DNA from: Antedon mediterranea
Taxonomy: Eukaryota; Animalia; Echinodermata
DNA: 64,000 nt
Direction of reading: 5' to 3'
NCBI RefSeq assembly: GCF_964355755.1
Contig: NC_092673.1
Coordinates: forward strand, 29,757,648-29,821,647
Shown here piece after piece: positions 3,110 through 59,324 of the stretch; the first letter of the stretch is position 1, and every line of letters starts with the position of its first letter. The notes under the pieces are model-generated. The model did not search any database and was not told the DNA's origin. It saw only the letters and a program-made list of their open reading frames with translations. The position numbers and the translations under genes are program-made.

Positions 3110-4048
3110 ATGGTATATCCTGTTTTAGAGGAATTAAAAGAACAAGCGCTAACGTGTCAATTGTGTTTTGAGATTCCCGACGGAGGTCGAGGTGAATCAA
3201 ATGTTTTTAAACAGCTAAGTTGTTCTCACACATTCTGTAAATTGTGTATTGAGAAGTTGATAGATTCTAATGGCGGTAAATATAAATTCCTCTCAACCCT
3301 TATTAATTGCCCTAATTGCAGGGCTCTTACCCATATAAAAGAGGGGAATGTAGACGCACTTCCGTCGGCATTTCAATTTAATAATGTGATAGAATGGATA
3401 AATAAGAAACAAGAAAAAACAAATCGAGTTTGTCGCGAGCACGGAGTACAATTGAATTTCTTCTGTCTAAATTGCCTTCAATTCGTTTGTGGTGATGATT
3501 TGAGATTAACAGAAAATCACGAGGAACACACAACTTTGTATGTGAAAACCGAAGCAGAACCAATACGTAAGGCAGCTCATGATATGATGGAAGAAATTGG
3601 ATGTCAACTGGGCCACTGGAAGAAAGCTCATGAAGAAGTCGAAGCAATGATATCTATTATTGACGATGATACCTCAAAATCAATTCAACTATTAGAAAAG
3701 TATACGGAAGAAATAAAAAGGAGTTTGATTTCAGCACAAGATCGTCTAAAGGAAACAATAATGAACACACAGAAGAAAAAGATTCAACTACTAGAAAAAG
3801 ATAAAGATGCAATCATGACGAAAATTCAGGAAGTCGAGAAGAAGATTTCGGAACACAAAGTATCAATGAAAAATGCTGACAGTTTTGAAACATTTATTGA
3901 ATATGTTGCGATCACTGAAATTCATGAATTTTGTGCAGACGAACACGCAGGTGGCCAAACAAACAAAGCAAGATTCCCTGGACCTTTCTCCAAATTTCAT
4001 CTCACTCAAACGTTTGAAGAAAGATATTGCTCATTTTGGAGAAGTTAA
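3110..4048 (+). CDS. TRIM-like RING/B-box/coiled-coil protein, copy 1 (truncated, possibly a pseudogene)
   Basis: C3HC4 RING (CQLC...CSHTFCKLC...CPNC), B-box (CREH...CLNC...C...HEEH) and coiled coil. A frameshift near 3935 moves the conserved PNFISLKRLKKDIAHFG motif into another frame. TAA at 4046-4048 precedes a GC-type donor at 4068. Confidence 0.75.
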   Translation: MVYPVLEELKEQALTCQLCFEIPDGGRGESNVFKQLSCSHTFCKLCIEKLIDSNGGKYKFLSTLINCPNCRALTHIKEGNVDALPSAFQFNNVIEWINKKQEKTNRVCREHGVQLNFFCLNCLQFVCGDDLRLTENHEEHTTLYVKTEAEPIRKAAHDMMEEIGCQLGHWKKAHEEVEAMISIIDDDTSKSIQLLEKYTEEIKRSLISAQDRLKETIMNTQKKKIQLLEKDKDAIMTKIQEVEKKISEHKVSMKNADSFETFIEYVAITEIHEFCADEHAGGQTNKARFPGPFSKFHLTQTFEERYCSFWRS

Positions 4049-4127
4049 GTGCACAAGAAATCTGAAAGCAAGTACAGTATAGTATACACAATAATATTTA
4101 ATAAATCTAACAGCAGGCCTACAATCC

Positions 4128-4430
4128 CGGAGAGGTTCCATGGTTCTGGTGGTAGAACAAGTTCTTCTCGGATAAGGACTATAAACCGTAGGTCCAGTGT
4201 ATGCATATTGCTCGTGTGCACTTTAAAGAACCTATAACCTGTACATCTTTCGAGACGAGTAGGGGGTTACCCCCGGTGTAATAGTACACACACACACCCA
4301 CACACACACTGTCGTGGACAGACGTAATGGCACCGTAGTTGGCTGCCGATGACACGATGTGACCCTTAGGGGAGAAGAATGTTGTTGAAAAGGTGTAACA
4401 TCTCAAGTCCACAGCGTTCTGATCTTCATG
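4128..4430 (+). mobile_element. SINE fragment with a Nin-like core
   Basis: GATAAGGACTATAAACCGTAGGTCC...GCACTTTAAAGAACC resembles the Nin SINE domain. Related copies at ~47890-48020 (+) and ~26090-26265 (-). Confidence 0.55.
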
Positions 4431-4654
4431 AAATAGCGCTATATAAATGTCGCATTATATAAGTTCAATTCCTTGCTATTGTCTCTTCGGCTTAACAGTA
4501 ATATTGATATTCTGTAGCTAAAACTATGAACCTGGATTATTAGTATTATGTTGTTATACAGTGGAGAAAATAAATTTGAATACATAATTAGAAATTCATA
4601 AAAATTGGAAAAAGAACTTTTCATTGAATGTATAAATATCTTCTTTTTTTTCAG

Positions 4655-4797
4655 AATCCTATACTAAAAAGATGTACAAAGAAGACAAATATGCGGGAGA
4701 AGTAGACTCATATGATGGTTACAACAACTGTAAAGGTTATAATAGGAAAAGCCTTCGTAAGATATGCACAGTACTTACAAAGAAGAACATGCTTTAA
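4655..4797 (+). pseudogene. Residual exon 2 of TRIM copy 1 (tail only, LC8-like domain missing)
   Basis: Same acceptor context as the paralogs (TTTCAG|AATC). Phase-1 frame SYTKKMYKEDKYAGEV...RKSLRKICTVLTKKNML* resembles the copy 4 tail (EDNYAREV...KKSYRRLYRK). Confidence 0.5.
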
Positions 4798-5065
4798 TTT
4801 ATGAGAGCCTCATCTGTCTGCATGTTGTCAAATGTAAATGGTATTCTATTACGGTATTGTTGAAAAAAACGTGTATGATTAAAATGTGCTTGGATTCTTA
4901 AATTTAAGTTGGCTTCTAACAAATAAATTTATTAAAAAACAATTTAGTGCATGTCCGTGTTTTCCTGCGGCAAAGGCCCCCGGTGTTTTGTTCTGACTGA
5001 ACGATACGATAAGCTACGTGATAATGCTGTTGTTGATCACGCCCTCTATTATAGTTTGTATTAAT

Positions 5066-5094
5066 GGGGAATCCCCTTTTAGATGGGGAATTCC
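5066..5094 (+). promoter_or_regulatory. Paired NF-kB-type sites upstream of TRIM copy 2
   Basis: GGGGAATCCCC (5066-5076) and GGGGAATTCC (5085-5094), about 90-120 bp before the ATG at 5186. Confidence 0.7.
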
Positions 5095-5185
5095 ATTTGT
5101 ACACCCGACGCCATTTAGAGTATTAACCGTTCAGTCCTAGGCCTAAATTAGCGTTAGCCGCTCGCGGGCTGTGTCTTTCAACAAA

Positions 5186-7468
5186 ATGGCTTATGCCGTG
5201 TTAGATGAATTGAAAGAACAAGCACTAACATGTGAATTGTGTTTTGAGGTTCCTGGAGGAGCACAAGGTGATACCAATGTTTTCAAACAGCTAAGTTGTT
5301 CTCACATATTTTGTAAATTATGTATTCAGAAGTTAGCAGACACGCAAGCAGATCCTTCAGGTATTTGTCGACATATACGTATTTCTTGCCCTAATTGCAG
5401 GGTTTTTACCTCTATACATGAGGGTGATGCAGAAACACTTTCATCCGCATTTAAAGTTACAAATGTAATCGATTGGGTAAATACGAAGCAAGAAAAGGAG
5501 GAGAAAGAAAAGAAAGATCGGGTGTGCAATGAGCACGGAGTACCATACAATTTCTTCTGTCTGGATTGCTCTAAATTTGTATGTGGTGATGGTTTGATAT
5601 TAACACATAGTCACGAGGGACATACTCCATTGTATATTAAAATCGCAGCAGAACCAGTACGCAAGGCAGCTCAAGATATGATGGAAGAAATTGAATTTCA
5701 ACTGGGCCACTGGAAGAAAGCTCATGAAGAAGTCAGGGGAATGATATCGCGTATTGATGATGATACATCAAAAGCAATGGAACTATTAAACAAATATACG
5801 GAAAAAATTTGTTTGAGTTTGATTTCAGCTCAAGAACGGTTAACAGAAAAAATAATGAACACACAGAAGAATAAGATTGAAGTACTGGAAAAAGAAAAAG
5901 ATGCGATCATGAGGAAAATTCAGGACATTGAGAATAAGATGTCAGAACACCAAGAAACAATAAAAAATGCAGATAAATATGAAGTGTTCAATGAACACGT
6001 TGCAATCACTAAAATGCGTCAAGAATTCCTGAGAGATCAACTTCCAGACATGACACGGATGACCAAACAAACAGAAGATGATTCATTGAGGTTTGCACCA
6101 AATTTCATCTCTCTCAGACGCCTGAAAAATGATATTGCTCATTTTGGTAAAGTGCATAATAAATCTGAAAGTAAGTATAGATTATACATAAACTTCGATA
6201 ATTTAATTCATATATATTATAAAGTAGAGCTAATACATACAGTATCAGTAAATACAGAAGAGTATTAAATAACTACAGTAAATTTCTTGTACTCGAAGTT
6301 CACTTTATGTTGTCCATATTTTTTTTTATTGTTAAATGGTTATTTAACTTATCAATTTTAGGTCACCTTTTTTCTATCTGTATCTAATTCTTTTAATTAA
6401 CTAATTAGGCCTAATTGATTTAAAATATGTTCTTCTACCTATATCTTGACCTGTTGAGCTCCATTACAAGAAAGTATGTGCCTAAATTACTGTAGTATTA
6501 TGTTTGAGCACAGCAAATTCAATAACTTTATTTAATATTGCGTTGCTATTACTAAAATGAGTCAAGAATTTCTGATAAATGATGACCCGACAAGCAGAAG
6601 AATCACTGAAGTAACTAAAAGTTTACTCCAAATTTAATCTCTCTCAAACGCTTGAAAAATGATATTTCTCATTTTGGAAAAGTACACAAACAATCTGAAG
6701 GTAAAATAAATTTACAGTACGTTTTCCCTACAGTAAATTAATACTTTATTCAAATTAAATTAATTTTGAACTTGATTGAATGTGGAATAATAATTACTAT
6801 TTATAATATAATCACTAGTGTATCATGATTGATATTGAAAATAATTGTTAATAGTATAGTGGTAAATTTTAAAGAATACTGTACATTGAATTAAACTGTG
6901 ATGTTTTTTTTAAGATTCATTTTCTGTAACAATTTCACATTCTGAAGGATTATCTCGAGAAGTGTTGAAAACCATGGAAGATGTCGTCAAGGAAGCATAT
7001 GAATTAGATATATCAAATATGGACAAAGTTAAAGACAGAAGAACCAAACTGACATTTATTGTAAAGCATTTGGAAGATGTTCTTGAAGGAGAATGGAAAT
7101 GCATTTTAGGTGATTTTGAAAGATCGCAATGGCCAGTGCAAGTTAACAAAACTGTGTCATTCTTTGTAAATGACACAGATAATGTTACTATTTATAATTT
7201 AGTGAAAGAGGTATACAGTGGCTACAAATATTATAACGTAGCAGAATGGGATAATAATGAAATGAAAGTATGTGAAGAAGAGGAAGAAAGTGACAAAGAG
7301 GATGAAAGTGACAAAGAGGAAGAAAGTGAAAAAGAGGAAGAAATTGACAAAGAGGAAGAAAGTGAAAAAGAGGAAGAAAGTGAAAAAGAGGAAGAAAGTG
7401 ACAAAGAGGAAGAACATGAAACATATGGTGAGGAAGTAGAAGTGATCAATATCCCTTGGCAATGGTAA
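5186..7468 (+). CDS. TRIM-like protein copy 2 (RING/B-box/coiled-coil + LC8-like domain + acidic tail), 2 exons, ~512 aa
   Basis: Exon 1 5186-6170 (donor GTAAGT), exon 2 6915-7468. The phase-1 intron joins the two ORFs in frame. Tail of (EEESEK/EEESDK)n 18-bp repeats. Confidence 0.85.
6541..6730 (+). pseudogene. Relic of a paralogous exon-1 3' end inside the intron of copy 2
   Basis: Matches the copy 4 exon-1 end and donor (...CTCTCAAACGCTTGAAAAATGA...CAATCTGAAG|GTAAAATAAA), with indels. Confidence 0.75.
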
Positions 7469-8677
7469 TCATGTCACAGAAGTACACAGTGCAGAGAGAG
7501 TAGGCCTACGTCAGTACTACAATATTCTTTGAACAGAGAGGAAAAGTGTACAAGTAGGCCTATGAGAAAACTAAAAAAAAAACAGATTTGCAAGAAACAT
7601 GCCAGAGAAGTGGAAAGGGTGAAACAAAAAGACAATTCATTTCATCATTGGCGAAAAAATGTTTCTTAAAAGATTCGAAAAGTGCAAAATGGATCAATGA
7701 CAAAGTTGTACACTATGAATTATGTAAAATACAAGAATTAGATTAAAACTTAGCAAGAGAAAAAAATTGTAATGAATAACAAGATTTGAATCATGTTTCT
7801 TTGATGACCAAATAAAACTACAATAATAATGTCATGTAGTTTCAATATTATTGAAAATAAACATTTTAAAAACATGTATTAATACTTGTTACAAGTTCTC
7901 TAGTAGGCCTATAGTGACAACTTACCGTAAAAAATTCACTGTAAATAAAAGATCCAAATATTAAATCTGAATATTAAATTTTAACATTTTTATAAATAAA
8001 TAACACATTTTATTTTATATAGTGTTATTTTTTAGAGATTTCAACATTAGAATGAAAATAATCTTAATTTAAATAAAACGATAAATCAGAGTATTTGGCT
8101 ATTCATTTACTATAGTTAAAATAAAAATAGACTAATTTTATTTAAGTATAACATATTTAATAATATCAAATACACAAATTAATTTTTAAGTTCTGTCCCA
8201 ATCATAACATGGTATTATTATCCACCCATATATGTGGTAAAAAAGATGAATGAAAGTAATTTGATGTGTTTATTAGTTTTTAAAAAGTTAGTTTTTATGT
8301 CACTTTAATTTATTACATAGCTGCTGAAAAAAAAGATTGCCTTGTTTTCGACTTGCTTGTGTATATAATTATATATATTTAGTTATTATAAAAAATAATA
8401 TAAAATCTGCATTGTTTATTTAACTTTCCTAATTTCAGACATGAGTAATAAACAATATAAAACAAATATATAAGAGGATGGAAATAATTATTATATCTTT
8501 AAAGATATTGAAAAAAACGCCCTTAATTGTGGCAGTGAGTTAAGTTGTATTGTTTATTATACAATAATATATGTATACAACAATTCTAAATGCATTTAAT
8601 ATTTAACAGATTGGAAATTCCAAAGTTTGCCTAACTGTCGCCATTATTATTGCTGAATGATCGTTTTTTAAAAAATA

Positions 8678-9843
8678 AATAGCATATCAAGTTTTACTTG
8701 AATTAAAGGTAAAACAAATGTTTTTAAACAGCTATGCTGTGTTCTCACACATTTTGTAAATTATGTATTAAAAAGTTAAACTGGAGTTGAATGCCATGCC
8801 AACATTTATATTTAATATCACTTGCCCTACCTGTAGAATGGAAACCCACTAGACAAATTCTGTCAGCATTTCATTTACAAATGTGATAGAATAGATAAAT
8901 AAGAAGCAACAAGTAAAAGAACAAGGCCAACAGCCATTAAGTCGCGTGCTACAATGCACAATGCATAGTGATACCGGACCGACAGACAGACCGACAGACA
9001 GACAGACAGACAGAGAGACCGACCGACCGACATAGTGAACTATACTGACCGAAATTACTGAACATGTTTAAAAATGTTGAAATGTTTAAAAACATTTATT
9101 TTTTTTTAATTTACACGTGCGTAGCCTGTCACTTTCGACGTGCTCGTATAACGTAATTTCGAGTTGAAAAGTAAGTCAAGAAAACAGAAATCGGGCAAAA
9201 AGAGTGCGCAATAACATTTAACGCGCAGTGCGCGCGCAAAAATATGCGCACTCATGGCAATTTTGTAAACGCTTAAAATTGCCTAAAATGTACTCTTATT
9301 TCATCGAAAATCAATTTTGAAAATGTTAAGCGCGCGTACGCATGCGTTACATGCGCTACGCACGTAATTGTATTGCCATATGATGATTTATGCCCTGAAA
9401 TTTATGAGTACCAAATTTTATTTAATTGTGATTCATGGTTGTGAAGATATATGATTACAAACGTGATTTCGTTAAATCGTGCGTAGACCGCGTAATGTTT
9501 TATTGCGCACCGTGAAAACATAACCACATTGATTCCTGGCCATAAGGAATATACTGTGAAAAATTGACCTAGCTTAAACTGATATCAAGATAAGGTCAGA
9601 AAGCGATAAAACGCATAGTGATACCGGACCGACAGACAGACAGACAGACAGACAGACCGACAGACAGACAGACCGACCGACATAGTGAACTATAGAGTCG
9701 CTTCCACGCGACTAAAAAGGGTCGATAACCGAGTTTGTCGCGAGCTTGGAGTAAAATTGAATTTCTTCTGTCTTAATTGCTCTAAATTAGTTTGTGGTGA
9801 TGATTTAAGATTGTGTGTTAGTGAAAACCGAAGCAGAACCAAT
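8678..9843 (+). pseudogene. Decayed TRIM exon-1 fragment (RING and B-box) split by a transposon
   Basis: AATGTTTTTAAACAGCTA...TTCTCACACATTTTGTAAATTATGT, TGCCCT and CGAGTTTGTCGCGAG...TTCTTCTGT match the paralogs but carry deletions and stops. Confidence 0.75.
8921..9718 (-). mobile_element. Helentron-associated (HINE/DINE-like) non-autonomous element
   Basis: On the minus strand: 5' TTTTTAGTCGCGTGGAAGCGACT hairpin/subTIR, (GTCT/GTCG)n microsatellites, 3' subTIR CACGCGACTTA followed by a GGCTGTTGGCC stem and TTGT, inserted in a T-rich site. Confidence 0.7.
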
Positions 9844-9899
9844 AGTTTCAATTGAAAATAAACATTTAAAAAAACATGTATTAATACTTACAGAAACAT

Positions 9900-10420
9900 T
9901 GAGAGAAAAGACAAGAAAAGCTATCGAAGATTTTACAGAAAACAAAAAATGAATAAAAGATTAGCAGGTCGTGATATGGATCAATTATAATATGTGTGCT
10001 ATACTGTGACGTGTAGGTTCAGATGTCACTGTAACTGCCATCCCTTTCATCAATTTTTAAGTTTTATAAACACTAAGTCTCAGATTTTCATAATATGGCA
10101 GAAAAAATTAAAATAATCTGTTAAATTGTTGCATAAATCCCAAAAGAACATAAAAATGAAGAAATGCACAATATTGGATATAGCTAACAAAGACAATCAT
10201 ATTAGCACATTAGTAGTTAAGATAATATAATTCTGGTGATATAGCATCGTGCAAGAACCCTGTTTTATTGTGTTTAGTTCATATATCAGGGTAAAAATTA
10301 CTTTTGGAATTACAAACAATCGTGAAACAAAAAACGTTGATTGCAACAATAATTTCATTCAGTTTCAATATTATTGAAAATAAACATTTTAAAAATGTGT
10401 ATTAATACTTGCTTTAGGTT
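9900..10420 (+). pseudogene. Duplicated C-terminus and 3' UTR of a copy-4-like TRIM
   Basis: GACAAGAAAAGCTATCGAAGA...GATATGGATCAATTATAA and the following UTR match 18290-18690. Confidence 0.75.
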
Positions 10421-10576
10421 CTTTAAGTAAAAAAAAACATTAATCAGATTTGTTTGATATGAAGAAACATCAGAGTGGTATTATTTTCTAAAAAGATGTA
10501 CAAATAAGACAAATATGCTTGAGAAGTAAATTCATATGATGGTAACTGTAAAGGTTATAATAGGAAAAGCCTTCGT

Positions 10577-10817
10577 AAAATATGCACAGTACTTACAAAG
10601 AAGAACATGTCAACGAAATAGAATAACATTTTTAAAATATGCATAGTACTTACAAAGAAGAATATGTCAACGAAATAGAATAACATTGTAAGATAACCCA
10701 GTACTTACAAAGAAGACCATGTCAACGAAATAGAATAACATTTGTAAGATATACACAGTACTTACAAAGAAGAACATGTCAACTAAATAGAATAACATTT
10801 GTAAGATATGCACAGTA
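10577..10817. repeat. 57-bp minisatellite, ~4 copies
   Basis: Same unit as the 14713-16010 array. Confidence 0.85.
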
Positions 10818-11141
10818 AAATACATTACAAAAAAGTAAAAAAAACATGTCTAGGCCACCTCTATAGAACTTTAATTTATGAGAGCCTCATCCGTCTGCAT
10901 GCCATAGTTGTCAAATGTAAATTGTATTCTATAAATACGGTATTTTTTAGAGGAAAACGTGTATGATTAGTAAATATGCTTGGATTCTTCAATTAAAAAA
11001 TATCATGTATTGTTTAAGGCCTGTTTTTTTTTCTGGCTGTACGTCATCGGCTACTGTAATCATAGTCTTAGTAAAGTAACTATGGGCCTCACCAGAAACA
11101 AACATTTACATCACGCCCTCTATAATAGTATTGTAAGAACA

Positions 11142-11174
11142 GGGGAATCCCCTTTTAGATATTGGGGAAAGTCC
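11142..11174 (+). promoter_or_regulatory. Paired NF-kB-type sites upstream of TRIM copy 3
   Basis: GGGGAATCCCC (11142-11152) and GGGGAAAGTCC (11164-11174, reverse complement GGACTTTCCCC). ATG at 11267. Confidence 0.7.
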
Positions 11175-11266
11175 ATGTTGACACCCGACGCCATTTACAG
11201 TTCAGTAACTAAGCCTCTATCTAGTCTTAGCGTTAGCCGCTCACGGCCTATGTGTCTTTCAACAAA

Positions 11267-13358
11267 ATGGCTTATCACTTGCTAGATGAATTGAAAGAAC
11301 AAACACTAACATGTCAATTATGTTTTGAGGTTCCCGGAGGAGGAGCACAAGGTGATACAAATGTTTTCAAACAGCTAAGTTGTTCTCACATATTTTGTAA
11401 ATCATGTATTCAAAAGTGGACAGTAGCAGAAGGCTATTGTCGTGGAATTATCACTTGCCCTAATTGCAGGAAGAAAATCAGGGGGAATGTAGACGCACTT
11501 CCGTCAGCATTTCAGGTTACAAATGTGATCGAATGGATAAATAAGAAACAACAAGATAAGTCGACAAATCGAGTTTGTCGTGAGCATGGAGTACAATTGA
11601 ATTTCTTCTGTCTCGATTGCTCAGCATTTGTATGTGGTGATGGTTTGAGATTATCACAAAGTCACGAGGAGCACACAACATTGTATGTTAAAACCGAAGC
11701 AGAACCAATACGCAAGGCGGCGCAAGATATGATGGAAGAAATTAAATTTCGAATGGGCCACTGGAAGAAAGCTCATGAAGAAGTCAGGGGAATGATATCG
11801 AGTATTGATGATGATACATCAAAAGCGTTGGAATTATTAGAGAAATATACGGAAGAAATAAAAAAAAGTCTGATATCAGCTCAAGATCTTTTAAGAAAAA
11901 CAATAATGAACACACAGAAGAAAAAGATTGAAGTACTGGAAAAAGAAAAATATGCAATCATAAGGAAAATCCAGGAAATTGAGAAGAAGATATTAGAACA
12001 CCAAGAATCAATGAAAAAAGCAGATGAATTTGAGGTATTCAATGAACACGTTGCAATCACTAAAATGCGTCAAGAATTCCTGAGAGATCAACTTCCAGAC
12101 ACGACACAGATGACCAAACAAACAGAAGATGATTCATTAAGGTTTGCACCAAATTTCATCTCTCTCAGACGCCTGAAAAATGATATTGCTCATTTTGGTA
12201 AAGTGCATAATAAATCTGAAAGTAAGTATATATTATACATAAACTTCGATAATTTAATTTATACATATTATAAAGTAGAGCTAATACATACAGTATCAGT
12301 AAATACAGAAGAGTATTAAATAACTATAGTAAATTTTTTTTACTCGAAGTTCACTTTATGTTGTCCATATTTTTTTTATTGTTAAATGGTTATTTAACTT
12401 ATCAATTTTAGGTCACCTTTTTTCTATCTGTATCTAATTCTTTTAATTAACTAATTAGGCCTAATTGATTTAAAATATGTTCTTCTACCTATATCTTGAC
12501 CTGTTGAGCTCCATTACAAGAAAGTATGTGCCTAAATTACTGTAGTATTATGTTTGAGCACAGCAAATTCAATAACTTTATTTAATATTGAATGATAATT
12601 AGATATAATTTATTTAATAATCAATGATTAATATCAATTAACCAGTTGAATTTGGATGTTCTACAAGATTGTTGGTCTATATGATCGTATATGATCTAGA
12701 AATATGGAAAGTGGATTCACAGAAAACTGTTGACTTTTATTTTTCAGAATCATTAAAATTCATATCAACTTCATATTCTAAAGGATTATCTCGACAAGTG
12801 TTGAAAACCATGGAAGATGTGGTAAAGGAAGCCTACGAACTAGACTTATCAAATATGGAAAAAGTTGAAGACAGAAGAACCAAACTGACATTTATTGTAA
12901 AGCATTTGGAAGATGTTCTTGAAGGAGAATGGAATTGCATTTTAGGTGATTTTGAAAGATCGCAATGGCCAGTGCAAGTTAACAAAACTGTGAATTTCTT
13001 GGTAAATGACACAGACAATGTCATTATTTATAAATTAGTAGGAGTGGAAGAGCAGAAAAAATATGAAAAAGAAGTAATTTTAAAAAAAGAAGAATATTCC
13101 AGAGTAGAAGTGTTGAACCCAGCTTTAAAAGAGGTATACAACAACGCGCCGAGCCAGTGGCAAAATGTTAAACAAAGCAACACGTCACAACGAAGTTATT
13201 CTAAACAACAGCTTTTGGATATGAATGCGAATCATTCTATTTCTGATGATACTTACCGCGTTTTAAATGGTTTTGGAATTTTGCGTCATTCTCGTCGAAA
13301 AGCAGGTAATAACAAGGCCATGTACATGGCTGCAGTCGCGTGCTCAAATTTGAGTTAG
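11267..13358 (+). CDS. TRIM-like protein copy 3 (RING/B-box/coiled-coil + LC8-like domain + unique tail), 2 exons, ~521 aa
   Basis: Exon 1 11267-12221 (donor GTAAGT), exon 2 12748-13358 (TTTCAG|AATC). Phase-1 intron, frame open throughout. Confidence 0.85.
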
Positions 13359-14575
13359 TGTACCAACCAACATAGTGAGCTGTAAAAAACGTATATATCA
13401 TGTACCTAGGCCTAAAAACATTAGAAACATTGTAAAATATAATAATCTTGCTCCTGGTAGGAAAAATAAAGAAAATCTTCGTGCTATTCTCTGCGTGAAT
13501 CAAATTTTGAATATCAACGTTCACCTGTGAACGAATTAAGACCGTCATCTTCGCCGATCACGTCCTGCTTTACGATGTTAACATACTACTGGTTACTATA
13601 GACGTGGTTGACTATTGATGATCAGAGCCACTAACAACTATGGGGAATCAGGTATACAGGTTACTTCATAAAAATCACTAAATGTATCCCTATCTTCATC
13701 TTCCTATACTTACGCGAGTTTTGAACATTGTGTTATTAGCGTACAGAATAAAGTTAAACTAGTTGGTATTTTTTTTATATATGTGATTTTATTCAATTAA
13801 TTATACATTTTTTGGTATTATAATGGTAACCATAATAACGTGTATTTACAGTGATTTTTACCCCAAAAAAATATAAATTATAATATATACAGTGATTATT
13901 TACAGTAATAATAATAAAAATTAATAGTTTTATAGACTTTATTCAAACAGAAGTTGAATAATAAAATACTGAATAAATACAAAGTTTCATTAGAGGTTTA
14001 CAATCAATAGAAAAGATGAATACATATAATATTCTAAGTATCAAAACTAGCAGATAGTGTTTAGGAAGATTACACGGTATATTGGCAGCGGCCTACAAAA
14101 TGAACATGGTTATAAGCAAAATTTACGTATTGATTGATTGATTGAATCGGGCATCACTATAAGCAAAGCTTTAAAATGTGATGTCCTATTTAACAATTAA
14201 AAATTGGGAAAAAAAAATAATTTTAAAAAATATATAAAAAAAAATTTACGCCCTCCACCATCTCGAGCAAATGGTCTCCGGACTAGTACATTTCTAGCAG
14301 AAGTATAATTTTTTTCGAAGAAATTGTTGTTATTCCTAATGATAATTAATTAAATGATTAATGGTGATTTCAACCTACATGTGGACATTCCCGGAAAGTG
14401 GGAGACTGCCGAATTTATAAATATACCGACTCAAACAGGATTTCATCAATACATAAATCAACCGACGCATAAAATGGGTCACATCCTGGACTTAGTTATA
14501 TCTCGTACAGAAGATAATGACATTGAACGTGTACAGGTGTATCCTTTAGAATACTCGGATCATCAAGTTGGATGT
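13175..14575 (+). mobile_element. Degenerate 5' part of a CR1/L2-type LINE (leader and AP endonuclease remnants)
   Basis: YSKQQLL...GILRHSRRKAG leader; KTVIFADHVLLYDVNILLVT..WL at ~13540-13615; RPP at ~14250; GDFNLHVD...PTHKMGHILDLVIS at 14354-14520. Confidence 0.7.
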
Positions 14576-14712
14576 ATAGTGCCGAGAGGTATACATTATA
14601 CAACACTGTATAAAAAGGGTGCTCAATCTTATTTGGCAATAATTTTCCGGAGAGTAATGATGTAAATATTCTCGTAGATTCCTTTGTCTCGATGACATAC
14701 ATAGTAGGGCCT

Positions 14713-16010
14713 ACTTACAAAGAAGAACATACCAACGAAATAGAATAACATTTGTAAGATATGCACAGTACTTACAAAGAACAACATGTCAACGAAATAG
14801 AATAACATTTGTAAAATATGCACAGTACTTACAAAGAACAACATGTCAACGAAATAGAATAACATTTGTAAGATATGCACAGTACTTACAAAGAACAACA
14901 TGTCAACGAAATAGAATAACATGTGTAAGATATGCACAGTACTTACAAAGAAGAACATGTCAACGAAATAGAATAACATTTGTAAGATATGCACAGTACT
15001 TACAAAGAAGACCATGTCAACGAAATAGAATAACATTTGTAAGATATGCACAGTACTTACAAAGAAGAACATGTCAACGAAATAGAATTAGATGTGTAAG
15101 ATATGCACAGTACTTACAAAGAAGAACATGTCAACGAAATAGAATAACATTTGTAAGATATGCACAGTACTTACAAAGAAGACCATGCCAACGAAATAGA
15201 ATTAGATGTGTAAGATATGCACAGTACTTACAAAGAAGAACATGTCAACGAAATAGAATAACATTTGTAAGATATGCACAGTACTTACAAAGAAGACCAT
15301 GCCAACGAAATAGAATTAGATGTGTAAGATATGCACAGTACTTACAAAGAAGACCATGCCAACGAAATAGAATTAGATGTGTAAGATATGCACAGTACTT
15401 ACAAAGAAGAACATGCCAACGAAATAGAATTAGATGTGTAAGATATGCACAGTACTTACAAAGAAGACCATGTCAACGAAATAGAATTAGATGTGTAAGA
15501 TATGCACAGTACTTACAAAGAAGACCATGTCAACGAAATAGAATAACATTTGTAAGATATGCACAGTACTTACAAAGAAGACCATGTCAACGAAATAGAA
15601 TAACATTTGTAAGATATGCACAGTACTTACAAAGAAGACCATGTCAACGACGAAATAGAATAACATGTGTAAGATATGCACAGTACTTACAAAGAAGACC
15701 ATGTCAACGAAATAGAATAACATTTGTAAGATATGCACAGTACTTACAAAGAAGACCATGCCAACGAAATAGAATAACATTTGTAAGATATGCACAGTAC
15801 TTACAAAGAAGACCATGTCAACGAAATAGAATAACATTTGTAAGATATACACAGTACTTACAAAGAAGAACATGTCAACGAAATAGAATAACATTTGTAA
15901 GATATACACAGTACTTACAAAGAAGACCATGCCAACGAAATAGAATAACATTTGTAAGATATGCACAGTACTTACAAAGAAGACCATGCCAACGAAATAG
16001 AATAACATGT
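14713..16010. repeat. 57-bp minisatellite, ~23 copies
   Basis: Unit AAGATATGCACAGTACTTACAAAGAAGA(A/C)CATG(T/C)CAACGAAATAGAATAACATTTGT. Confidence 0.95.
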
Positions 16011-16377
16011 GAATGCACAGAGATCACACAAAAAAATCCAGAATTAAAAAACAAACAAACCATGTCTACGCCGCCTCTAGGCCTATAGAAAACTTTAATT
16101 CATCTGCATGTCTTAGCTGTCAAATGTAAATTGTATTCTATAAATACGGTATTGTTAAAAAAACGTGTATGATTAGTAAATATCTGCTTGGATTCTTCAA
16201 TTTAAGTTGGTCTAACTGTGTTTTGTAAATAAATTTATTAAAAAAATCATGTATTGCGTCCGTGTTTTCCTATCTGAAATGGCCTAGCTTTCATTGGCTG
16301 ACTATGGTGTGATAATGGTGGTGCCAGAAACAAACATTTACATCACGCCCTCAATAATAGTATAAATTATAAGAACA

Positions 16378-16410
16378 GGGGAATCCCCTTTCAGATATTT
16401 GGGAAAATCG
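16378..16410 (+). promoter_or_regulatory. NF-kB-type site plus degenerate partner upstream of TRIM copy 4
   Basis: GGGGAATCCCC (16378-16388) and GGGAAAATCG (16401-16410). ATG at 16501. Confidence 0.65.
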
Positions 16411-16500
16411 ATTTTGACATCCCACGCCATTTACAATTCAGTAACTAGACCTCTAGTCTTAGCGTTTAGCCGCTCACGGCCTATATGTTTTTTCGTTAAA

Positions 16501-18371
16501 ATGGCTTGTGCCGTGTTAGATGAATTGAAAGAACAGGCACTAACATGTGAATTGTGTTTTGAGGTTCCTGGAGGAGCACAAGGTGACACAAATGTTTTCA
16601 AACAGCTAAGTTGTTCTCATGCATTTTGTAAATTATGTATCCAAAGGTTGGCAGAACAAGTACGAGTAGAAGAAGTACTACCGTTAAGCGAAATATTGCA
16701 CAGGTATAGATATCATGATCAAGATAATTATGGTTGGCGTCGAAATATTGCTTGCCCTAATTGCAGGGCCATTACCTCTATAGAAGGAGAGGATGTAGAC
16801 AACGGGGTAGACAAACTTCCATCCGTATTTAAAGTTACAAATGTGATCGATTGGGTAAATAGGAAGCAAGAAAAGGAGAAAGAAATGAAAGATCGAGTGT
16901 GCAGTGTGCACGAAGGAGTACCATACAATTTCTTCTGTCTCGATTGCTCTAAATTTGTCTGTGGTGATGGTTTGAGATTAACAGATAGTCACGAGGAACA
17001 CACAACGTTGTATGTGAAAACCGAAGCAGAGCCAATACGTAAGGCAGCTCAAGATATGATGGAAGAAATTGGATGTCAACTGGGCCACTGGAAGAAAGCT
17101 CATGAAGAAGTCGAAGCAATGATATCTATTATTGACGATGACACATCGAAAGCAATGGAATTATTAGAGAAATATACAAAAGAAATAAGAAAAAGTCTTA
17201 TTTTAGCTCAAGATCTTTTAAGAAAAACAATAATGAACACACAGAAGAAAAAGATTGAAGTACTGGAAAAAGAAAAAGATGCAATCTTGAGGAAAATCCA
17301 GGAAATTGAGAAGAAGATATCAGAACAACAAAAATCAATAAAAAAAGCAGACAAATTTGAGGTATTCAATGAACACGTTGCGATCACTAAAATGCGTCAA
17401 CAATTTCTTGCAGACAAATGTCCTGACTTAGCACCAATGATGGCCCAACAAGCAGAAGAATCATTAAAGTTTGAACCAAATTTCATCTCTCTCAAACGCT
17501 TGAAAAATGACATAGCTCGTTTTGGAAAAGTACACAAACAATCTGAAGGTAAAATAAATTATACAGTATGTTTTCCCTACAGTAATACTTTATATTTTTT
17601 TTAACTTGATTGAACCTGGATTAATAATTATTATTTATATCATCAACATTGTATCATGTTTGATGATGTTTGAAAATAATTGTTATTAGCAAATGGCAAA
17701 TTAAACTGTGATGTTTGTTTTTTTTTTAATTTTCAGAATCATTTTCTATAACAACTTCATATTCTGAGGGATTATCTCCAGAAATGTTGAAATCCATGGA
17801 AGATGTGGTAAAGGAAGCCTACGAACTAGACTTATCAAAAGTAGAACAAGTTGAAGACAGAAGAACCAAATTGACATTTATTGTAAAGCATTTGGAAGAT
17901 GTTCTTGGAGAAGAATGGAATTGCATTTTAGGTGATTTTGAAAAATCAATACGACCAGGGGAATTTAACCAAACTGTGACATTCCTTGTCAATGAAGTGG
18001 ACAATGTGACTATGTGTAGCAGCTTTAGCTTTATAAATGAAGAGGAAGAATATGAGTGTGAAGAGGAAGAAGAAGAGGAAGAATATGAGTGTGAAGAGGA
18101 ACAGCATGAAGAACAAAGGTATACCAGAAATGTTAAACTAGGGGAATATTTGCAAGAAATGGCTAGAGAAGTAGAACAGGTGGAACAATTGCAAGATAAA
18201 TATTGTGTTAACGATGAAGACAATTATGCCAGAGAGGTGCAACATGCAGAACACTTAAAAGATATGAAGGAAGAAGTAAATGGAAGAAGAGACAAGAAAA
18301 GCTATCGAAGACTTTACAGAAAACAAAAAATGAATAAAAGATTGGCAAGGCGTGATATGGATCAATTATAA
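16501..18371 (+). CDS. TRIM-like protein copy 4 (RING/B-box/coiled-coil + LC8-like domain + acidic then basic tail), 2 exons, ~560 aa
   Basis: Exon 1 16501-17548 (GAAG|GTAAAA), exon 2 17737-18371 (TTTCAG|AATC). Phase-1 intron, frame open. Confidence 0.85.
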
Positions 18372-19124
18372 TATGTGTGCTGTACTGTGACGTGTAGGTT
18401 CAGATGTCACTGTAACTGCCCTCTCTTTAAATCCATCAACATTAAGTATCAGATTTCCTTAAAATGGCAGAAAAAAAATTTGTTGCACAAACCCCAAAGA
18501 ACATACAAATGAAGAAATTCACAATATTGGATGTAGCTTCTGTAGGAAATTCATATACTTTTAATGATATAATTCTGGTGATATAACATCCTGCAAGAAC
18601 CCTGCTTTATTGTGTTTAGCTTAGGCATAAGAGAATTACAACAAATTGTGCAACAGTTTCAATATTATTGAAAATAAACATTTTAAAAATAAAACATCTA
18701 AAATATCATTCTAAATAAAATCATTAGTTTAAAAGAAACATTCATCAGAATTGTTTGATATGAAGAAACATCAGAGTGGTATTTGCTGAATGCTCTCAAA
18801 AAACATTATGAATGACGCATTGAAGCAGCAGAACATCATCATTATATAAACTTCTTTCAGATTATATTTTATCAAATTTGATTACCAAACACATTATTCA
18901 AAATCAACGCGTGTATATTATATAATTTACTATAATAGTTGTATACAAATAAATAAATGCTGTTAATAATCATTTTTTTAATTCAATTCATGTATTTAAC
19001 AGCAAGTTTGTAAGATCTTTATAAAGAATCACTATGGTTACGACGCAGAAGCCAAACAAACAAAGCAAGATTCGTTGGACCTTTCTCTAAATTTCATCTC
19101 TCTCAAACGTTTACATTATATACA

Positions 19125-19460
19125 TTATTACATTATATAGGGGGTCTCTGTTTTCGAGTTTTTGTCGAAAACAGAGACCCCCACTAAAACGTCTCAATAT
19201 TACATTATGTAGGGGGTCTCTGTTTTTGAGATTTTCTCGAAAACAGAGACCCCCTATATAACGTAATATTGACTTAATATTGAGACGTTTTAGTGGGGTC
19301 TCTGTTTTCGAGAAAAACTCGAAAACAGAGACCCCCTATATAATGTAATATTGAGACGTTTTAGTGGGGGTCTCTGTTTTCGAGAAAAACTCGAAAACAG
19401 AGACCCTGGGTCTCGGGTCTCTGGTCTCTGTTTTCGAGGTCTCTGTTTTCGAGACACCCA
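19125..19460. repeat. Foldback cluster of short inverted repeats
   Basis: Repeated GGGGTCTCTGTTTTCGAG / CTCGAAAACAGAGACCCC hairpins in both orientations. Confidence 0.85.
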
Positions 19461-20655
19461 AATTTGAAGTGTTTAATGAACACGTTGCTGTCACTAAATT
19501 ACGTGAAGAATTCCTGACAGATCAACTTCCTCACACAACAAAGATGACCAAAGAAACAAAGCAAGAATCATTGAAGTTTTCACCAAATTTCATCTCTCTC
19601 AAACGTTTGAAAAATGATATTGCTCATTTCGGAAAAGTACATAAGAAATCTGAAGGTAAATATTGAAATCTATAAGTTTATAAAAACACAAACTTATATA
19701 TAAATATGCATATAGACAAAATAATAAACTTGATTGGGAAAATAATATGAAATTTAATTTATTTATGTAACAGCCAAACTGATAGCGGAGTATTTCGACT
19801 ACGAGTAATAACATAAATAGTAATCGGTTGTAAAAGCATTTTTTTACGTCTACCGTTATATAATGGTAATAAAAATGTCACGGTGAAAATAAAGCATTCT
19901 AAGAGTAATTGTAGACACTTACTTCACATACTGTAAAATTATAATCTGAACTCACATAGTAAATATTACATTATTTTTGTAGAATAACAAAATTTCATTT
20001 ATTTATTTGCATTTATTTATGTTGTTTTTAGAATTATCGATTGTCATAAAGCATTTAAATTTTGAGGGAGTAACACCAACTTTGTTGAAATGGATGCAGA
20101 ATGCTATATATAAAGCATACTCACTAGATGTATCAAAATTATCTCACCTTGAAGAAAGAAAAACAAAAATTAGATGTATTGTTAATCGTTTGATACATGA
20201 CCTTGGAGAAAAATGAAATTGTTGTATTGGTGATTTTACACAAGTTCATTGGTCAGGCATGAAAGGTCAGGTGTTTACTGTAAATTATGTGGATAGTGTT
20301 AGTATCTACAAGAGTGAAGCAATCATGGAGGAGCATAAAGTGTCGCCAAAAAAAGAAGCAACAATATTGCACAGTAGTTATAAAACAGAAACAGATGAAA
20401 AACGTCAATAAATATCAGTTTACTGGTGATACAGCCTTCAATATCTCTCAGTGAGAAGTTTTGACATTTTTTGTTTTTATTTTGGAAATGAGTGCTTTGA
20501 TGAAAACACCTTGGCAGTGCATCATTCACAATAATGCTAGCATTGGCTTAAGTAAACAGCACATTGAAAGAATGAGGATTGATATACCATCAATGGTGAC
20601 GGTGAGAATTAATGGTAAAGATGTTTGGTTGTTAAAAATGATTAGCTTTGAGTGA
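19461..20655 (+). pseudogene. 5'-truncated TRIM relic with two tandem LC8-like domains
   Basis: Exon-1 3' end 19461-19655 (PNFISLKRLKNDIAHFGKVHKKSE|GT). Exon 2 from 20032, with TGA at the conserved Trp (GEK*NCCIGDF) and a second, frameshifted unit ending PWQCII...VTVRINGKDVWLLK. Confidence 0.75.
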
Positions 20656-22941: not shown

Positions 22942-52976
<30,035 letters not shown>

Positions 52977-58302: not shown

Positions 58303-58716
58303 TCAAATCTTTTTGAAGATGCGCGTACACTTGACGTCATCTTTAATACATTGTACCATCATATCGCCAGACTCTAGAATTTCTCTGATAATTCGATGTG
58401 GTTTATTCTGATTCGGATCAACATCTTCAAACACTAGCTTATTACGGCCCATCCAGTTAACGATTACGACGCGTTTCTCACACGTTGGCGAGATATCATC
58501 AAACGGTTCACCAACACTAAACTTCTGAATGTGCACTCCAAGAACCGGTACCACCATTTTAATTACAAAATTGTCACCAGACTGTTGAATGTCGCACGTT
58601 GGGGACATTACTACCGCTGTTTTGCGGACGTTTTCGTTAACACCCATCTTCACCATATATTCATCAAAGTTGTCGCTTTTGCAGAGTTGGTATTTTCCCG
58701 AGAAGTCAGCTGCCAT
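58303..58716 (-). CDS. Fatty acid-binding protein / intracellular lipid-binding family protein, intronless CDS, 137 aa
   Basis: MAADFSGKYQLCKSDNFDEYMVKMGV (iLBP GxY/W...NFDEYM signature), F.VGEPFD, and C-terminal VKCTRIFKK. AAAATGG start context, TATAAA on the minus strand near 58933-58938, AATAAA near 58200. Confidence 0.88.
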   Translation of the reverse strand: MAADFSGKYQLCKSDNFDEYMVKMGVNENVRKTAVVMSPTCDIQQSGDNFVIKMVVPVLGVHIQKFSVGEPFDDISPTCEKRVVIVNWMGRNKLVFEDVDPNQNKPHRIIREILESGDMMVQCIKDDVKCTRIFKKI

Positions 58717-59324
58717 TTTGTTAATGAATGTAATATTGTTTTTAAAAATTGAAGATATTAAATTGTTTGTTGTCGAAGTAAAAAGCTCACCAGGTGTTGT
58801 GTATCTGTATTCGTCGACAGTGGGTTGTGTGTGTGAGCTATTCAATAGTGATTGTGTTCTTTTCAATGCGGTAAAGAAAACGTAATCCACGCAGAATCTA
58901 TACAAGAAATAACTAAATCCGTATGATTCATATTTATAAGAAGGGACCTGAACTATTGATTTCACAATCTCGCAAAAATCACTCTTATTACGACAAAGGC
59001 AATTTACTACACCCGCCATCCACAATTGATCGCCTGCCGAATGTTATTTTAACAATGCATTCTCAAGATATTCATTACCATCAATTGAATACACTTGTAC
59101 AAATTGTTTTATTCTCCCTGATCGTGGTCATGTACTTTTCCCATCGGGAGACGTACATCATATTAAACCCTCTGGCTATGTTTCGTGCACTTTTCACGTC
59201 AAAAGACTAGACTGATCATGAATATTAGTCATCTTATCCATAATATTAAAATGTGCATAATTCGAACACAAAGCCGAAAAGCAACGTTGTTCGATTTACA
59301 GACCCCAATATGCAACATCTCATT

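Follow-up and report, generated by a model that had tools for sequence, protein, structure and literature searches.

In ubiquitin ligases of the TRIM family (also RBCC, for RING, B-box plus coiled coil), new classes are described as arising through the gain of a C-terminal exon (PMC3137616), the coiled coils as forming antiparallel dimers and the C-terminal domain as generally recognising the substrate (PMC7752041). In the dynein light chain LC8, strand beta3 is reported to be unstructured in the monomer, to pair with beta2 of the partner and to line the groove (PMC12017986); this strand and the partner-binding site are given as strictly conserved and as the most conserved region of the protein (PMC6607443). 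The flatworm protein CsTAL3 is described as keeping an LC8-type dimer and groove with an unconserved interface sequence, through backbone hydrogen bonds (PMC5431922). Here we describe a locus of the feather star Antedon mediterranea at which a TRIM-type exon and an LC8-like domain are joined. The window (the whole analysed stretch of 64,000 nucleotides, nt) carries at 3110-20655, on the + strand like all array features given below, a tandem array of six copies, of which three are intact two-exon genes (c2, c3 and c4) and three are broken. Exon 1 encodes RING, B-box2 and coiled coil, and exon 2 starts with a domain of ~95 residues that is predicted to have the LC8 fold, two helices on an antiparallel sheet. 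We propose, with about an even chance of being right, that this is a crinoid TRIM E3 family in which the predicted LC8-fold C-terminal domain, with a re-specified groove, is the substrate receptor.

A sequence-only reading of the window had put forward a tandem, lineage-specific TRIM family with RING, B-box plus coiled coil, continued across a conserved phase-1 intron into an LC8-like domain, an architecture for which it knew no description, and all of this has stood up. Pfam Dynein_light (PF01221) matches six of six family domains (best E 8.7e-6; E 0.004-0.013 for those of the window), and a profile of six family sequences finds dynein light chains among solved structures at E 6e-5. A feature search of the ESM Atlas ranked clusters bearing Dynein_light at the top (0.93; the family is on 15-22% of their members). 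The AlphaFold2 model of the domain, built from six family sequences with no LC8 among them, has a predicted local distance difference test score (pLDDT) of 81 and a predicted template modelling score of 0.76; Foldseek gave 38 matches to it at E<=0.001, dynein light chains throughout among the matches listed. When 48,161 chains were compared in VIA-align, ranks 1-7 were all of LC8/TAL type (Z 9.9-11.4, root-mean-square deviation, rmsd, 2.3-2.7), three more followed at Z 6.5-7.3, including Tctex-1 and Tda2, and other folds scored at most 6.1. A second model, that of an orthologue from the crinoid Anneissia japonica, gave Z 11.7 to an LC8-type fold over residues 314-414. Together the six Pfam matches, the profile E of 6e-5 and the fold search at Z 11.4 leave the likeness to LC8 beyond chance. 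There was no viral structural match (best E 0.045).

The exons of the intact genes were joined by coordinates, and in each the frame is open across a GT..AG phase-1 intron. In c2, exon 1 (5186..6170) encodes RING, B-box2, coiled coil and linker, and exon 2 (6915..7468) the LC8-like domain (6917-7198) and an acidic tail with an 18-nt repeat (7278-7414), 512 residues in all. The exon 1 of c3 (11267..12221) has the same content, and its exon 2 (12748..13358) holds the LC8-like domain whose sequence was modelled (12750-13031) and a polar/basic tail, giving 521 residues. In c4, exon 1 (16501..17548) has a RING with a long insertion, followed by B-box2, coiled coil and linker, and exon 2 (17737..18371) an LC8-like domain (17739-18020) and a tail that is acidic and then basic, giving 560 residues. 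No copy's tail is related to another's (0 of 222 columns invariant). The c3 and c4 models agree letter for letter with the A. mediterranea RefSeq entries XP_071946950.1 and XP_071948899.1, each an 'uncharacterized protein'; no fused c2 protein was returned by two protein searches, both word-limited.

The evidence for splicing comes from contigs, not reads, of one sequencing run (X1). None of the five runs listed has an RNA label on its record, and X1 was judged to be RNA because it shows two GT..AG joints and its intron bins are near-empty; in the other three of the four runs compared (X2-X4) the introns are covered. For c3 the junction 12221/12748 of the sequence-only reading is an exact GT..AG joint in an X1 contig (shorter side 181 nt) from which the intron of 526 nt (12222..12747) is absent. 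The junction 6170/6915 proposed for c2 fared less well: X1 joins 6700->6915, with the stretch 6052-6577 of the assembly replaced, and the 6170 donor stays predicted for the assembled allele. The c4 junction 17548/17737 rests on the RefSeq model, as exon 1 of c4 is without X1 cover, which carries no information on c4 expression. In the assembly the final ~150 nt of c2 exon 1 and the next ~370 nt are near-identical to c3 (96% identity over 640 nt); since this covers the stretch replaced in X1, the assembled c2 looks, from its sequence, like a recombinant allele that would require the predicted donor 6170. In the window at 6020-6700, these ~520 c3-like nt (exon end, donor and intron start) stand ahead of c2's own older exon-1 end (6541..6700), whose donor 6700 is the one used in X1. 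The absence of the insert from X1 suggests a structural polymorphism or a recent unequal exchange. Within 11930-11994 the X1 contig of c3 reads like c1 at several positions, which points to gene conversion among the copies.

On the TRIM side, the C3HC4 RING pattern and an Arg after its last Cys are found in seven of seven family proteins. This Arg acts as a linchpin in RING ligases. Pfam zf-B_box lies over its cut-off in c1-c4 and in three Anneissia proteins, and zf-C3HC4 in the same set except c2 and c4, which fall under it. In the model of the Anneissia orthologue a coiled-coil helix spans residues 148-252 (~105 residues, pLDDT mostly 68-86), and residues 100-285 align with B-box/coiled-coil structures of TRIM type (TRIM5alpha, KAP1 and 7xz1/7xyz) at Z 7.1-7.6, a score that counts as middling where helices are compared. 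From the kept zinc ligands and the Arg the family is a candidate for ligase activity; some TRIM RINGs are described as inactive (PMC7752041).

The family was found in two crinoid species. HMMER over 1.84 billion representatives returned four matches: c4, one A. japonica TRIM, and P0004 and P0005, the last two being repetitive, matched in four short stretches each and without RING or B-box, so that they were dropped. A search with the Anneissia TRIM gave, at E<=1e-10, five of 4251 candidates, namely three Anneissia proteins (XP_033125567.1, XP_033107691.1 and XP_033125495.1), c3 and c4, and these protein searches found the TRIM-LC8 architecture in no other taxon. The Anneissia proteins have the identical architecture, intact frames and about 40% identity to those of Antedon. 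In a tree of the RBCC part the sequences cluster by species (100/100), which, with the shared architecture, indicates that the fusion is older than the Antedon/Anneissia split and that the family expanded separately in each lineage, as judged from these sequences. At the C-terminus of XP_033107691.1 lies a second LC8-like domain (Pfam E 0.0015 at profile positions 2-57), with fitting secondary structure in the model, at low confidence; profile comparison between the first LC8-like domain and the second was weak (probability 4%), and the second had no sequence match among solved structures. The precomputed Pfam list of this protein holds RING, B-box and PF01221, so that automatic annotation already shows the pairing. 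Among the 3026 candidates of a near-length search there was no stand-alone relative, and no cluster with RING/B-box and Dynein_light was among the ESM Atlas matches listed, which include only large clusters. One metagenome locus (L001, one of 341 pattern matches) proved to be an off-frame match within another gene.

What would such a domain do at the end of a TRIM protein? It occupies the position at which TRIM proteins usually recognise substrates, which supports a receptor role, and in a TRIM dimer both C-terminal domains lie near the dimer centre. Going by what is known of TRIM proteins and LC8, dimerisation of the protein through the coiled coil would bring a pair of LC8-like domains close to each other; these would join through beta2 and beta3, like LC8 and flatworm TAL domains, and the resulting grooves would bind extended peptides by strand addition. 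The variable beta3 would give each paralogue its own non-TQT preference, and the RINGs would ubiquitinate the protein bound in the groove. The two tandem LC8-like domains of one Anneissia protein would suit a built-in pseudo-dimer. The beta3 equivalent is the most variable portion of the folded domain, with 0 of 12 columns invariant, indels and a cross-species identity of 0.04 (invariant columns number 5/8 in beta2, and 5/16 and 5/20 in the helices), and it is unstructured in the monomer domain model. The dimer of CsTAL3, with its unconserved interface, makes a divergent beta3 compatible with both dimer and groove. In five TRIM proteins of the family we found neither a tankyrase-binding motif nor a convincing internal TQT motif.

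The promoters may hint at when the genes are used. Two kappaB-consensus sites (5066..5094) precede the c2 ATG, a palindrome by 120 nt and a second site by 101 nt, and a kappaB-consensus palindrome lies 125 nt upstream of that of c3 (11142..11152) and 123 nt upstream of that of c4 (16378..16388); outside the array such a site occurs in 0.9% of 200-nt windows. The identical 11-mer is described as a kappaB probe for an electrophoretic mobility shift assay, drawn from the region upstream of Nematostella IkB (PMC2751831). No IRF or GAS motif was found within 400 nt upstream. A TATA-like stretch stands ~25 nt before the palindrome in c2, c3 and c4, and the palindrome in this form is absent from c1. 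The predicted sites and the birth-and-death turnover of the array suggest an inducible role, possibly in immunity. A bolder version, which we put forward tentatively and think rather doubtful, is that crinoids have turned the LC8 hub, which ranks among the most conserved proteins of eukaryotes, into the diversifying recognition head of an NF-kappaB-inducible ubiquitin ligase. Its groove strand, usually invariant, would have become a variable loop, and the outcome would be a new TRIM class by which foreign or stress-induced peptides are sensed through strand addition; a single-chain form with two domains would have existed in the ancestor of the family.

Several observations weigh against the receptor reading. 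No single domain attains the Pfam Dynein_light cut-off (16-18 bits for the window domains against a curated 29.1); the whole protein P0006 passes it at 36.2 bits, summed from two stretches. The LC8-type chains listed share no more than 9-21% identity with the domain, and the model of the full-length protein is of poor quality (mean pLDDT 50), with a second LC8-like domain of low confidence. The divergence of beta3 could equally mean that the groove has been lost, and the ratio of non-synonymous to synonymous substitution (dN/dS), taken by region, shows no sign of positive selection among c2, c3 and c4. One Cys ligand of B-box2 is Gly or Asp in the window copies and kept in Anneissia, and three of the six array copies are broken. 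The invariant run at the kappaB sites is one of six such runs in the promoters, and since the c2, c3 and c4 promoters are of common ancestry, the three are one event and count as a single observation. We still favour, at about even odds, the re-specified groove as substrate receptor over the three alternatives that follow, in their order.

The first alternative, possible although we doubt it, sees in the LC8-like domain a structural clamp or a module for localisation, which would stiffen the TRIM dimer, build assemblies of higher order or anchor the protein to dynein, cilia or the cytoskeleton, while the variable tail or the coiled coil recognises the substrate. This agrees with conservation that sits in the helices and the beta2 core and not at the groove edge, with the accepted role of LC8 as a dimerisation hub (PMC12017986) and with the unrelated tails, and another self-association element could compensate for the zinc ligand that the Antedon B-box has lost. 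However, the TRIM coiled coil already dimerises and C-terminal domains generally recognise substrates, as cited above, and the clamp would leave paralogue-specific beta3 sequences and repeated expansion unexplained.

It is unlikely that the array consists mostly of relaxed, decaying duplicates of an old fusion, with copies of little specific function, although its broken half and the B-box ligand loss speak in that direction. The c1 exon (RING, B-box2 and coiled coil, 3110..4070) has a frameshift near 3944 (tblastn changes frame at 3943/3945), a donor that is now GC and no LC8-like exon, and by its sequence is a truncated copy or pseudogene. A decayed copy (8705..9990) holds RING and B-box fragments with stops, with repeats between them and a 3' end like the c4 tail. 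In c5 the exon-1 remnant (19053..19655) keeps the linker end and donor, without RING or B-box, and holds an inverted-repeat element; exon 2 (20032..20408), belonging to a pseudogene, has in its first LC8-like domain a stop in frame at the position of the conserved Trp (20214-20216), and the remnant of a second (20419..20655) ends at the array edge. An 866-nt X1 contig covers 19975-20840 with no differences, so that the stop is common to both and the region seems to be transcribed despite it, which again fits relaxation. So do a dN/dS among c2-c4 that ranges from about 0.27 to 0.93 by region (below 1 in every region except a single one, which has 1.64 from 1.5 synonymous changes), with 0.40-0.68 over beta3-beta5 (small counts, disturbed by gene conversion), and the evident, mosaic conversion between copies. 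Against it stand the retention of the architecture, in intact frames at about 40% identity, by two crinoid species, a dN/dS of 0.19 (c2-c3) and 0.37 (c2-c4) in the domain core, and the splicing of c2 and c3 in X1. Over 77 columns the second LC8-like half of c5 shares 61% identity with the C-terminal end of Anneissia XP_033107691.1, and it is much nearer to Anneissia (61-71%) than the first c5 domain is (about 33-35%). The element within the c5 exon-1 remnant, at 19123-19453, is short and made of 72-nt palindromic units.

The remaining idea of the sequence-only reading, a decoy that would catch pathogen proteins by their canonical LC8 motifs (TQT) and send them for degradation, is quite improbable: the predicted LC8 fold, the kappaB-type promoter sites and the existence of solved LC8 complexes with viral peptides can be cited for it, but a molecule mimicking host LC8 should remain close to it, and a beta3 equivalent of variable length with no invariant column argues against mimicry of a site that is strictly conserved in LC8 (PMC6607443).

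The window is AT-rich (GC 34%), and the array stands tail to tail with a multi-exon, tankyrase-like gene on the - strand (23167-52183; Ank, SAM and PARP), an intron of which contains a non-long-terminal-repeat (non-LTR) reverse-transcriptase open reading frame (38826-40127, -). Directly upstream of the array lies a large inverted repeat of fold-back type with arms of about 1.1 kb (185-2972). A 57-nt tandem repeat is found upstream of c3 (10575-10817, 4.3 copies) and of c4 (14712-16008, 22.7 copies) and creates a spurious repetitive reading frame of 475 residues; a non-LTR endonuclease-like fragment (14354-14665, +) lies between c3 and c4. At 58303-59043 (-) there is an apparently single-exon reading frame like a fatty-acid-binding protein (Pfam Lipocalin_7).

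Our literature searches, supplements of TRIM surveys and crinoid genome papers aside, found, among the matches listed, no published TRIM with a dynein-light-chain domain; the word 'dynein' is absent from the main text of PMC3137616 and PMC3503706, and 'dynein light' from that of PMC8195603. It is the C-terminal domain that defines the classes of TRIM proteins, and our searches showed no class of LC8 type. As LC8 usually occurs as a stand-alone hub of near-invariant sequence, its fused and diversified form offers a natural experiment: how far can the groove be re-specified, and does it still work when a coiled coil tethers it? Should the groove recruit substrates, it would be a small, peptide-programmable module of E3 recognition and a lead into crinoid innate immunity.

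How, then, does the family compare with known systems? Like TRIM/RBCC ligases (PMC7752041, PMC3137616, PMC3503706) it has an N-terminal RING, a single B-box2, a long coiled coil and a linker, with the C-terminal domain on its own exon and a tandem, species-specific expansion as in class IV RBCC-PRYSPRY genes; the differences are the LC8-like C-terminal domain and the B-box2 Cys missing from the window copies. With LC8/DYNLL it shares a predicted beta1, two helices, a beta2 with W-x-C-x-x-G and two closing strands, superposing in the models at Z about 11 and rmsd 2.1-2.7 over about 85 residues. Its domain is nevertheless fused and, at the low identity given above, has a longer inter-helix loop; its groove strand is hypervariable instead of invariant and a single domain stays under the Pfam cut-off. 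Unlike the canonical DYNLL1/2 hub it is not a stand-alone protein of ~10 kDa, being fused to the RBCC part by a spliced junction. By sequence, therefore, the family is a TRIM and is not a canonical LC8, although a mode of working like that of an LC8 domain is likely. Branchiostoma RBCC-MATH TRIMs (PMC3503706) are a similar case of recent capture of a peptide-binding domain, restricted to a lineage of invertebrate deuterostomes, but the captured domain is another one, and TRIM37 was known before as a TRIM with MATH. For the fusion itself, the clearest precedent that we found is in the flatworm TAL/CaBP proteins (EF-hand and dynein-light-chain-like), described as having a diverged domain of this kind fused C-terminally in a lineage-specific manner (PMC5431922), and TAL proteins are among the top structural matches (Z 9.9-11.7). 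Their partner is a calcium-binding EF-hand pair and not RING-B-box-coiled coil (Pfam scans of exon 1 and of the whole proteins contained no EF-hand family), and since they belong to a different phylum, the TAL and feather-star fusions are most likely independent.

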